Shown: one piece after another, positions 19,679 through 21,740 of the stretch
Layout: each line of letters begins with the position of its first letter
Numbering within the stretch: position 1 is the first letter of the stretch
Sequence record: PV574017.1
DNA from: Escherichia phage EcM-vB1
Direction: 5' to 3' (one strand)
Length of the DNA stretch: 64,000 bases
Notes under the pieces: generated by a model
The model's input: the letters and a program-made list of their open reading frames with translations, nothing else
Database searches by the model: none
What the model was told of the DNA's origin: nothing
Translations under genes and position numbers: made by a program

Positions 19679-19757
19679 TCAATGGGTGCCTCTGATAAAG
19701 GGGCACAATTTAAAGGTTAATTAGATGAAAGGGTTTACCCTTCAGGTGGATTAGAAA

Positions 19758-21740
19758 ATTTGTGGCATCGTATTAGCTGGCGGTAATCTGTCAAGCACTG
19801 ATTTAGACGTATTTAACCAACTCTTTTATGCTGGAGTATTCCGAGGACAACATTCCTCCGGTATCTTTGGTCAGCGTAAAAGTACTAAGGAAGTCTTCAC
19901 TTATAAAGAAGCTCTTCCTTCTTTCGCATTCATCCTACAAGATGAGTACAAGAAGCACACCACTGGTGAAACAGCTTACACTGTAGCACCTTCATGGATT
20001 GTTGGTCACAGCCGTCATGCAACGAAAGGTGCAGTTAACGCCAAGAACGCCCATCCTTTCCAACATGGTAACATCACTCTGGTTCATAATGGAACCTTGA
20101 TGGACCAAGACCTGTTACCTGACAGTAAAAACTTCGAGGTAGATAGTGAGAACATCTGCCACTCTATTAACACTATTGGTGCAGCAGAGACTATTCAAAA
20201 GCTGGATGGTGCTTTCACCTTAATCTGGCATGATGCTTCTGATAACCGCCTTCATATCATTCGTAACGAAGAGCGTCCTTTCCATCTCGCACGTTGTAAC
20301 AGAGATTGGTTTGGCGCTTCTGAAGAAGATATGCTGATGTGGATTCTGAAGCGTTCGAAGTCTCACAAGAACCGTATTGATGAGCATTTTGAGTGTAAAG
20401 TTGGTACAGAGTATATCTTTGACATGTCTAATAACAGCATGACACTGGTTGAAGAGGTCGCCCACGAGCTTCCGGTTTTTACGGTAGTCAATCGTTGGGG
20501 CAATTACTACTCGAACAATTACAGCCAAAGCAACTATCAAAGTTCCTCAAAAAGCAGTACAAGCAATCCTTACGACACGAAGCCGGGTGTGACAGCGGCA
20601 GACGTTCGTCGAAGAAACGCAGTGGTAAGTCAAAACAAAATCGCAAGCGATCGAAACATTGATATTCGCCGAGATATGACTGTGGAAATCACTCCGCATG
20701 AGTTTGTTCCTTATGCAACTGCCGGTGCTGTTCCTTCTCGTGGTAAGATGATTGGTTATATCTACGATGAGAAATCTCAAGAGTATATCGAAGGTGATGT
20801 TCATAACGTAGACATTAAGGCTTATCAGGATGCCCTGAAAGACCCTAAAATTGTTTACCGTGGGACAGTATCCTGCATCTCCGAAGTCAATGCTATGGTC
20901 CGTTTAGTGATCACAGCAGGTCGTTTTGTTGACCCATCTCTGGAGAAAAAGGAGCCTGAGTCAACTACTGCTGACTTCGATGATGATATCCCTTTTGATA
21001 TGAATGATAGTTTCGTCAACAAGAATGGTGTTACTATCACTCGTAAATTCTGGGAAGCGCACTCTCATGGTGATTGTGGTGGTTGTGATAAGCACATTGA
21101 TTGGAAGGATGCACCTAAAGCAGTCTTCGCATATCAGTGCTATTGGCATCCTGAATGTCTGGAAGGTTTGACTAAACCTAAAGAGGAAGAAGAGGAGGAA
21201 ACTCCTATTGGTGTTTGTGAAATCTGCGGTGAAGTTAAAACAGAGAATGAGTTCGATGATGAACTTAGTCGTCTTCGTGGTGAAGATATCTGTAAAGTCT
21301 GCGCTGTAGAAGTAAAGAAGAAAGTGTCTAATGCTACGATCAAAGATGGTTATGTCTGGATTAAAGCAACAGATACAACAAACGCCCGTCGTCCTGAATT
21401 CGCTTTACGTGTAACTGAAGATATGATCGGTCGTATGACTGTATTACCTTCCTCAGCGAAACAGACAGGCATCACTCTGGAGGATGTTGTTGATGCTTAT
21501 GTTGAGAAACGTAGCAACAGTATTTTTGCAATCTCAACTAAGCCAAAAAGGAGGAACCTGCTGAGAAAGCAGGTGTGTTTCCTGAATCACGAACAGCTCT
21601 CCGCAAAACTGTCGTCAGCTTCGACGGAAACCGAAGCACTGACTTCACTAAAGCAATGTGGTCAACCCTCGGATACTGCTCAGAGTGTTTTAAGCAGATT
21701 CCGTGGCGCGATGCTGAAAGTTGTACGCTTGGTTCTATGA
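19758..21740 (+). CDS. class-II (Ntn) glutamine amidotransferase domain protein with C-terminal Cys-rich extension
   Basis: N-terminal CGIVLAGG, GHSRHATKGAVNAKNAHPF and LVHNGTL match GATase-II signatures; no ATG/GTG/TTG between in-frame TAG 19752-19754 and the Cys codon, ATT at 19758 with AGGTGG 7 nt upstream. Confidence 0.7.
   Translation: MCGIVLAGGNLSSTDLDVFNQLFYAGVFRGQHSSGIFGQRKSTKEVFTYKEALPSFAFILQDEYKKHTTGETAYTVAPSWIVGHSRHATKGAVNAKNAHPFQHGNITLVHNGTLMDQDLLPDSKNFEVDSENICHSINTIGAAETIQKLDGAFTLIWHDASDNRLHIIRNEERPFHLARCNRDWFGASEEDMLMWILKRSKSHKNRIDEHFECKVGTEYIFDMSNNSMTLVEEVAHELPVFTVVNRWGNYYSNNYSQSNYQSSSKSSTSNPYDTKPGVTAADVRRRNAVVSQNKIASDRNIDIRRDMTVEITPHEFVPYATAGAVPSRGKMIGYIYDEKSQEYIEGDVHNVDIKAYQDALKDPKIVYRGTVSCISEVNAMVRLVITAGRFVDPSLEKKEPESTTADFDDDIPFDMNDSFVNKNGVTITRKFWEAHSHGDCGGCDKHIDWKDAPKAVFAYQCYWHPECLEGLTKPKEEEEEETPIGVCEICGEVKTENEFDDELSRLRGEDICKVCAVEVKKKVSNATIKDGYVWIKATDTTNARRPEFALRVTEDMIGRMTVLPSSAKQTGITLEDVVDAYVEKRSNSIFAISTKPKRRNLLRKQVCFLNHEQLSAKLSSASTETEALTSLKQCGQPSDTAQSVLSRFRGAMLKVVRLVL

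Follow-up and report, generated by a model that had tools for sequence, protein, structure and literature searches.

A probable AUU start codon directly before the catalytic cysteine of a phiEco32-like phage glutamine amidotransferase, and near-cognate starts across its enzyme family

The window analysed here is a stretch of 64,000 nucleotides from Escherichia phage EcM-vB1 (sequence record PV574017.1), and our subject is the start of its gene for a glutamine amidotransferase (GATase). Positions count from the first letter of the window, and the features of the gene and its leader lie on the plus strand unless stated otherwise. The region of the gene matches phiEco32-like coliphages (EK5, ES17 and others) at 100% identity over 901 nt and phiEco32 itself at 97%; judged by these identities the window is a phiEco32-like Kuravirus of the subfamily Gordonclarkvirinae. 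The GATase gene at 19758..21740 is the orthologue of phiEco32 gp83 (phi32_83). As read in the window, its coding sequence (CDS) comprises 660 codons including an initial ATT, with the glutaminase domain at roughly 19761-20480, and the frame is open from a TAG at 19752 to 21740. The neighbourhood encodes a COOH-NH2 ligase (PF14395), an Amidoligase_2 protein, two small open reading frames (ORFs) and an ATP-grasp enzyme.

At the start region the window reads ATG (19725) AAA GGG TTT ACC CTT CAG GTG GAT, followed by TAG (19752..19754), AAA, ATT (19758..19760), TGT (19761..19763) and GGC ATC GTA, which corresponds to MKGFTLQVD*KICGIV. Translation verified that Cys-Gly-Ile-Val begins at 19761 and that the ATG at 19725 is in the same frame, both of which had been noted in the first-pass annotation. 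Its statement that the catalytic cysteine is not directly preceded by a canonical start also holds, since none lies between TAG 19752 and the Cys1 codon. In the ORF list, which admits ATG, GTG and TTG, the first canonical in-frame start is TTG at 20097..20099, 112 codons after Cys1. The Shine-Dalgarno (SD) motif AGGUGG of the GATase gene lies at 19744..19749; the earlier reading had the motif right, but its distance of 7 nt to the ATT applies only if the motif is taken as GGTGGA, and for AGGUGG the distance is 8 nt. The duplex with the anti-SD has an energy of −5.9 kcal/mol, and the aligned spacing of 7 is the modal value among the ATT- and ATC-type starts described below. We propose that translation of the GATase very probably starts at AUU 19758, as a solution that recurs in the enzyme family and that is embedded in a conserved leader in the phiEco32 lineage.

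By its sequence, the gene product is an N-terminal nucleophile (Ntn)-type, or class II, glutamine amidotransferase. It matches the Pfam families GATase_6 with 55.8 bits (cut-off 27) and GATase_7 with 28.1 bits (cut-off 25). In 12 homologues with 32-67% identity to the window protein, Cys1, Gly2, R28, G29, H83, R85, T88, N110, G111 and D128 are invariant. The profile of this alignment, compared with the PDB, places position 1, the N-terminal nucleophile encoded by TGT 19761..19763, on residue 1 of 1xff, 1ecb and 1ao0, the mature chains of GlmS, Escherichia coli PurF and Bacillus subtilis PurF. The conserved positions align with the RG, HTRWAT, HNG and D elements of GlmS, for which Arg26-Gly27, Arg73/Thr76, Asn98-Gly99 and Asp123 served as reference residues of the glutamine site and oxyanion hole. 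The remaining C-terminal part of the protein, about 430 residues, is Cys-rich and uncharacterised. Between Cys1 and TTG 20097, comparison of the 112 codons with relatives of other genera gave 41-47 synonymous and 23-25 non-synonymous codon differences at 70-73% nucleotide identity. Because the substitutions are mostly synonymous, the region upstream of TTG 20097 behaves as coding sequence and is translated in the GATase frame, and a dead gene was ruled out on the same grounds. Mass spectrometry identified the SU10 orthologue by 9 peptides, reported as peptide counts only (PMC4281155), and the gene is therefore expressed.

Orthologues with 33-68% protein identity carry an ATG exactly at the position of the ATT, directly before TGT or TGC and GG. 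They are encoded by Proteus phage Privateer, Salmonella phages SE131 and PKM.Hi.22.6, Aeromonas phage 4_4572, coliphage PJNS034, Pseudoalteromonas phage RIO-1 and several uncultured contigs. Because these distant orthologues place an ATG exactly there, the ATT can be assigned as the start codon. In the first-pass annotation an ATG immediately before the Cys codon of orthologues had been regarded as an argument against an unusual start; such an ATG is present only in the distant orthologues, where it marks the ATT as the start position, while the close relatives all keep ATT. Initiation at AUU directly before Cys1, one of the two possibilities raised at that stage, thus agrees with the ATG of orthologues at the same position, the lack of a canonical alternative and the well-placed SD. 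The suggestion that the TAG or the locus could be a sequencing error did not hold: positions 19711-19765 show an identity of at least 99% across 96 of 96 Gordonclarkvirinae records of a phage collection, and since this 55-nt block is preserved despite homopolymer defects nearby, a sequencing error is excluded.

The start had been called unusual, and its rarity is confirmed; its novelty is not, as the CDS already starts at this ATT in the GenBank records of phiEco32 (phi32_83), SU10 (SU10_085) and Bas90 (Bas90_0080). The narrow finding of an AUU start in the phiEco32-like GATase is therefore already part of public annotation. A search of one literature library found no earlier reports of ATT starts in phage amidotransferases. 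In the records of EK5, SU7, ECBP2, EP335, SR02 and BUCT695 internal starts are annotated and Cys1 is lost. The same occurs in other lineages: the gene of Pseudomonas phage O4, which has an ATC start, is annotated 36 codons too short, and that of Klebsiella phage KpnP_VR7901, with an ATT start, 16 codons too short. The miscalled starts in these records are internal ATG or TTG codons, 9 to 112 codons late. Such truncated records arise because gene callers disregard ATT and ATC. As a consequence, many phage records list an N-terminally truncated amidotransferase without the catalytic Cys, which contaminates protein databases.

For the enzyme family as a whole, homologous loci were collected from IMG/VR, GTDB genomes and metagenomes with a hidden Markov model anchored on Cys1. 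Of 161 distinct loci, 121 have ATG directly before Cys1, 30 have ATT, 4 ATC, 5 TTG and 1 GTG; no other codons occur. Roughly one fifth of the family uses AUU or AUC, and GUG and UUG are several-fold rarer. ATA was found in 0 of the 161 loci; ATA-TGY would generate an out-of-frame ATG. The ATT/ATC loci that were long enough to analyse number 33 and form 20 clusters at 70% identity; in 31 of the 33 loci the frame is closed upstream by a stop, with no canonical start in between. In some pairs of near-identical proteins the only difference is ATG versus ATT or ATC (loci L220/L225 versus L223, L209-211 versus L215, and L221 versus L202). Parsimony on a tree built by the unweighted pair group method with arithmetic mean (UPGMA) gave at least 18 switches between ATG and ATT/ATC, versus 5 for GTG/TTG; because a UPGMA tree is crude, these counts are rough minima. 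Phage AsnB-like genes were considered as a control for ATT/ATC starts in other Met-Cys genes and dropped, since the 14 phage records, several of them probably host fragments, were too small a set.

The surroundings of the near-cognate starts are distinctive. A is found at positions −3, −2 and −1 of ATT/ATC starts in 94%, 88% and 79%, respectively. At the level of clusters, the SD of ATT/ATC starts is slightly stronger than that of ATG starts (−8.3 vs −7.1 kcal/mol, p = 0.02), and an aligned SD spacing of 6-7 is present in 80% of the ATT/ATC clusters compared with 38% of the ATG clusters (Fisher p = 9e-4). The stop codon of the upstream gene lies within 12 nt in 74 of 111 ATG-type genes, and the median distance to the upstream gene is −47 nt for the ATT/ATC type compared with −4 nt for the ATG type. 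Coupling to a long upstream gene was considered as a general cause of ATT/ATC starts and rejected, as the trend is the opposite. By analogy with pcnB and infC of E. coli, the family might need low expression, which could be reached either by tight upstream coupling or by an optimal ribosome-binding site combined with a near-cognate start. The following observations on individual loci were also made. Four IMG/VR contigs with very different GATases (L165, L168, L195 and L208) share the arrangement GGAG-ATG-AG(A/T)-AAA-AT(T/C)-TGTGG, in which the ATG lies 8 nt before the ATT or ATC, out of frame, and opens an ORF of 6-8 codons across the start. Sub-kilobase scaffolds of the Herbiconiux daphne assembly (L229, L230, L231, L232 and L239) encode GATases like those of phiEco32 and 7-11-like phages, with TTG, GTG and ATT starts, and look like phage contamination of an actinobacterial assembly.

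In the phiEco32 lineage the AUU codon is part of an invariant leader block of 55 nt (19711..19765), which extends from the SD of an upstream ORF through the ATT as far as the second base of the Gly2 codon. In an alignment of the three genera Kuravirus, Suseptimavirus and Nieuwekanaalvirus at about 70% nucleotide identity, no other invariant run comes near this length; the next longest is 12 nt. In order, the block contains the weak SD AAAGG (19712..19716), 8 nt upstream of ATG 19725; the upstream ORF of 9 codons in the frame of the GATase (19725..19754, MKGFTLQVD*); within this ORF a small hairpin, UGAA(A)GGG-UUUA-CCCUUCA (19726..19744), seen in RNA folds; the SD of the GATase; the UAG, invariant in the records of the 96 relatives; AAA; and AUU. 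The energy of the hairpin is unexceptional (z about 0). The sole nucleotide-level match outside the subfamily is in Aeromonas phage BUCT695 (Grimontviridae), with 91% identity in the block against only about 51% in the GATase protein. Its upstream ORF, MKGLTLQAD*, ends with GAT TAG before ATT, and in the part from the upstream ORF to AUU it differs from the window at two sites, the hairpin loop (UUAA) and the SD (AGGCGG). In L231, a short contig of the Herbiconiux assembly with 60% protein identity, the hairpin is GGGA-UUUA-UCCC, with one base pair added on both arms, and a long HTH_3-type ORF runs through it and ends with TAG TAA just before ATT. In all three hairpin lineages the frame ends with GAU UAG immediately before AUU, while lineages at 62-68% protein identity have a plain ATG start and no hairpin. 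Rfam covariance models, including glutamine riboswitches, gave no match near the gathering score (best E = 0.33-6, unrelated families). A gapped-pattern search of IMG/VR for further hairpin-type leaders returned only known phages and chance hits, and a 14-mer scan for the leader gave mostly chance hits. The prophage small RNA svsR was considered as a partner of the conserved block and rejected, its paper reporting no base-pairing targets.

How the ribosome arrives at the AUU is a separate matter from the identity of the start codon. It could be reached mainly by termination-reinitiation, with ribosomes on the 9-codon upstream ORF melting the hairpin, terminating at UAG 19752 and restarting 3 nt further on, where the SD inside the upstream ORF would hold them, rather than by independent binding of the 30S subunit. 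The invariant block starts exactly at the SD of the upstream ORF (19711) and ends just past the AUU-UGU junction, an ORF ending GAU UAG right before AUU recurs in the Kuravirus relatives, in BUCT695 and, as the end of a long upstream gene, in L231, the SD of the GATase is weak in the lineages that have the upstream ORF (AGGCGG in BUCT695), and the hairpin survives a loop change and an inserted base pair. However, the upstream ORF of BUCT695 has no SD, and most other ATT/ATC lineages are farther from the upstream gene and have no such upstream ORF, so that coupling is not needed for AUU use in general. Codon-level and RNA-level constraints on the leader are moreover inseparable because variation in the 96 genomes is zero. 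We therefore take reinitiation as the main route seriously, without considering it probable. The invariance of the leader could alternatively reflect horizontal spread or gene conversion together with a free-standing homing endonuclease gene upstream of the GATase, of which the upstream ORF would be the decayed 3' end, without translational function. The hairpin/ATT leader has a patchy distribution: lineages with a protein identity of 100-82%, 60% and 51% carry it, those at 62-68% do not. The HTH_3 ORF of L231, which reads through the hairpin to TAG TAA, has weak similarity to a phage 'endonuclease' (BA14 gp2.8, E = 1e-3), and in BUCT695 (locus L007, 2804-3005) two unannotated short ORF fragments lie between the amidoligase and GATase genes, one with an HTH_3 match (E = 5e-7) and the other with the motif DCWLWTG...GYP, which we take to be typical of HNH endonucleases. 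The short ORFs of BUCT695 and L231 (L231 1-225) may be remnants of such a gene. On the other hand, the endonuclease assignment is built on weak E-values, an endonuclease gene is absent from the site in 96 of 96 Gordonclarkvirinae genomes, where the spacer is only 82 nt, and the edges of the block are sharp and identical in three genera, unlike those of conversion tracts. Spread by homing would in any case be compatible with a function of the leader. We regard this origin of the invariance as unlikely.

Two further explanations concern the start codon itself. The first-pass annotation had proposed, besides AUU initiation, a propeptide of roughly 12 residues interrupted by the TAG. If UAG 19752 were read through or bypassed, MKGFTLQVD-X-KI-Cys would be made and the 12 residues would be removed autocatalytically, as in B. 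subtilis PurF. Propeptide-bearing Ntn amidotransferases exist, and Cys is the first residue of the mature B. subtilis PurF chain; ATG 19725 shares the frame of the GATase, and UAG read-through at its basal level might in principle be about as frequent as AUU initiation. The propeptide is nevertheless hardly credible here, as the ATG-type orthologues begin with Met-Cys and have no propeptide, and other ATT/ATC lineages have unrelated upstream codons and differing stops, including a TAA directly before ATT in L208 and the two consecutive stops of L231. Moreover, TAG serves as a regular stop, a suppressor tRNA is missing from the window, and there is no matching landing codon for a hop. A suppressor tRNA or an alternative genetic code was considered and rejected: the sole tRNA gene in the 64-kb window is Arg(TCT) at 10829-10904, and TAG ends 8 of the 50 ORFs of at least 120 amino acids. 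A frameshift or hop into the GATase frame was likewise rejected; AAAUUUG looks slippery, but a −1 slip there misses the GATase frame, the heptamer is not fed by any long ORF, and there is no landing codon for a take-off at GAU. Finally, the true product could begin at the first canonical codon, which is TTG 20097 in the window and an internal ATG in relatives, with the upstream Cys stretch as an untranslated or decayed remnant. The automated annotations of EK5, SU7, ECBP2, EP335, SR02 and BUCT695 follow this reading. Their positions disagree among relatives (codon 9, 44 or 112), gene callers ignore ATT, and the skipped region is synonymous-biased and contains no stop codon. In addition, invariant catalytic residues would be deleted: a start at TTG 20097 would remove Cys1, Arg28-Gly29, His83/Arg85/Thr88 and Asn110-Gly111, leaving only D128 of the invariant residues. 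We give an internal start practically no credence.

We thus favor initiation at AUU 19758. The codon would be decoded by the initiator tRNA as formylmethionine, and deformylase and methionine aminopeptidase would then expose Cys1, as expected from established enzymology. The mature protein would begin with CGIVLAGG, and CGIVLAGGNLSSTDLDVFNQLFYAGVFR, with its N-terminus free, is the predicted N-terminal peptide. As a near-cognate start codon AUU is worth about 1-3% of AUG and is proof-read by initiation factor 3 (IF3), so that its use may throttle synthesis of the enzyme. Within the phage enzyme family, the combination of AUU or AUC with a well-placed SD and an A-rich spacer appears to be a recurrent, selected solution. 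In Kuravirus, Suseptimavirus, Nieuwekanaalvirus and BUCT695, a part of the initiating ribosomes is probably delivered by termination-reinitiation from the upstream ORF, whose stop precedes AUU by 3 nt.

Several points weigh against this interpretation. The N-terminus at AUU is derived from sequence comparison. Within the ATT/ATC group, the SD AGGUGG ranks with the weaker ones at −5.9 kcal/mol, and that of BUCT695 is only AGGCGG. The junction AUU-UGU yields a canonical UUG 2 nt downstream and out of frame (AUUUG, 19760-62), which should compete with AUU; as read from the sequence it opens an 8-codon ORF, MWHRISWR* (19760..19786), whose length is not conserved in SU7. It is the analogy with pcnB and infC that suggests throttling or the sensing of IF3 as the purpose. 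The reinitiation component is based on only three lineages, and the SD of the upstream ORF is weak and in BUCT695 absent. With these points in mind, we consider that the GATase may join the short list of natural AUU-initiated genes and that, by the comparisons made here, its AUU start is real and conserved.

A broader hypothesis can be formulated. Phage Ntn amidotransferases, whose start context AUG-UG is unavoidably ambiguous, might use AUU or AUC before Cys1 as a regulatory device that is under selection. The phiEco32 lineage would have elaborated this device into a dedicated 55-nt control element that makes synthesis dependent on termination-reinitiation and possibly on the level of IF3 or on translation of the Gln codon of the upstream ORF, which overlaps the SD. 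This proposal is speculative and, in our own estimate, rather doubtful. To our knowledge, the phage enzyme has not been linked to IF3. Independent of this hypothesis, the recurrent AUU/AUC starts amount to an experiment replicated by nature, from which the manner of and reasons for the selection of near-cognate start codons could be learned.

Other features of the locus concern transcription and the quality of the source record. Just 3' of the amidoligase stop TAA (19676-78), a terminator-like hairpin GUGCCUCU-GAUAA-AGGGGCAC lies at 19686..19706; it has a poor U tract and is present in the minimum free energy fold. Its stem is kept by compensatory changes in SU7 and ECBP2 (GCGCUCU/AGGGCGC) and in EP335, and one public record (WFI101126) annotates a terminator in this region. 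The SU10 paper lists neither promoter nor terminator between the amidoligase and GATase genes (PMC4281155). At the leader, no plus-strand sigma-70 promoter was found, TTTAAADGT showed no enrichment, and the leader motif occurs only once in the window, so that it is not a repeated promoter-like element. A sigma-70-like promoter on the minus strand (TTGACA, 16-nt spacer, TACGAT; 19794-19767), directed antisense into the leader, was rejected as probably a chance match, its −35 element not being conserved in SU7 (Suseptimavirus). The motif TTTAAATGTAA is conserved 20-30 nt upstream of the GATase start in ATG-type orthologues (L008, L009, L013, L019/L264 and L020/L267) and in BUCT695. The motif is similar to the AATGTA core of phiEco32 gp36-sigma promoters, and its Kuravirus counterpart TTTAAAGGTTAA is degenerate yet invariant. 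Towards the 3' end of the GATase gene, the A-run at 21545-21549 lacks one A that is present in phiEco32 and EK5. Compared with phiEco32, this shifts the frame of the last ~65 codons, with the ORF ending at 21740 instead of 21788, and the short run is probably a homopolymer sequencing error of the source record. A second homopolymer defect lies within 3 kb, where the C-run at ~22661-22665 is one C shorter than in phiEco32 and splits the ATP-grasp gene (orthologue of phi32_80, 1194 nt in phiEco32) into ORFs 22231-22686 and 22713-23423.

Comparison with known enzymes places the phage GATase close to GlmS, PurF, AsnB and YafJ, in which the N-terminal Cys is exposed by removal of Met. The phage sequence shares with them the conserved Arg-Gly, Arg/Thr, Asn-Gly and Asp positions. 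All of these Met-Cys genes necessarily start with AUG-UG and therefore present the ambiguous AUGUG context, which was studied by Kohl et al. with a list of genes including glmS, asnB, purF and yafJ (PMC9841429). In contrast to the phage gene, the E. coli genes of these four enzymes are listed with ATG starts. The phage enzyme further differs from them by its Cys-rich C-terminal part of about 430 residues and by its location in an amidoligase/ATP-grasp cluster. In B. subtilis PurF, an N-terminal extension is removed to expose Cys1, which needs an uninterrupted ORF from a canonical start. In the phage gene, a TAG conserved in 96 records interrupts the frame, and there are orthologues without any propeptide.

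With respect to the initiation signal, the phage leader resembles translational coupling through a short ORF, in that only 3 nt separate the stop codon from the following start and the upstream ORF contains the SD of the downstream gene. It differs in its restart codon, which is AUU and not AUG or GUG, and the coupling proposed here is read from the sequence. In E. coli, initiation at AUU, AUC, AUA or CUG reaches about 1-2% of that at AUG, ranging from 0.02 to 3% across constructs, a protein initiated at AUC carried an N-terminal Met, and infC and pcnB are the only confirmed genes with an AUU start (bioRxiv 10.1101/063800). Like infC, which encodes IF3, the GATase gene seems to combine a good ribosome-binding site with AUU, and its output could similarly depend on proof-reading by IF3; the feedback by its own product distinguishes infC from the phage gene. 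For pcnB, which encodes poly(A) polymerase I, AUU limits the synthesis of an enzyme that is harmful in excess, and we propose a functional analogy. However, pcnB is a host gene, and harm from an excess of phage GATase is an assumption. Unlike in pcnB, AUU recurs independently many times within one phage enzyme family, and the phiEco32 lineage has an upstream ORF in front of it. The result for the single locus is modest; what it adds to these known systems is the recurrence in the family, the invariant leader with upstream ORF and hairpin, and the recognition of truncated database entries.

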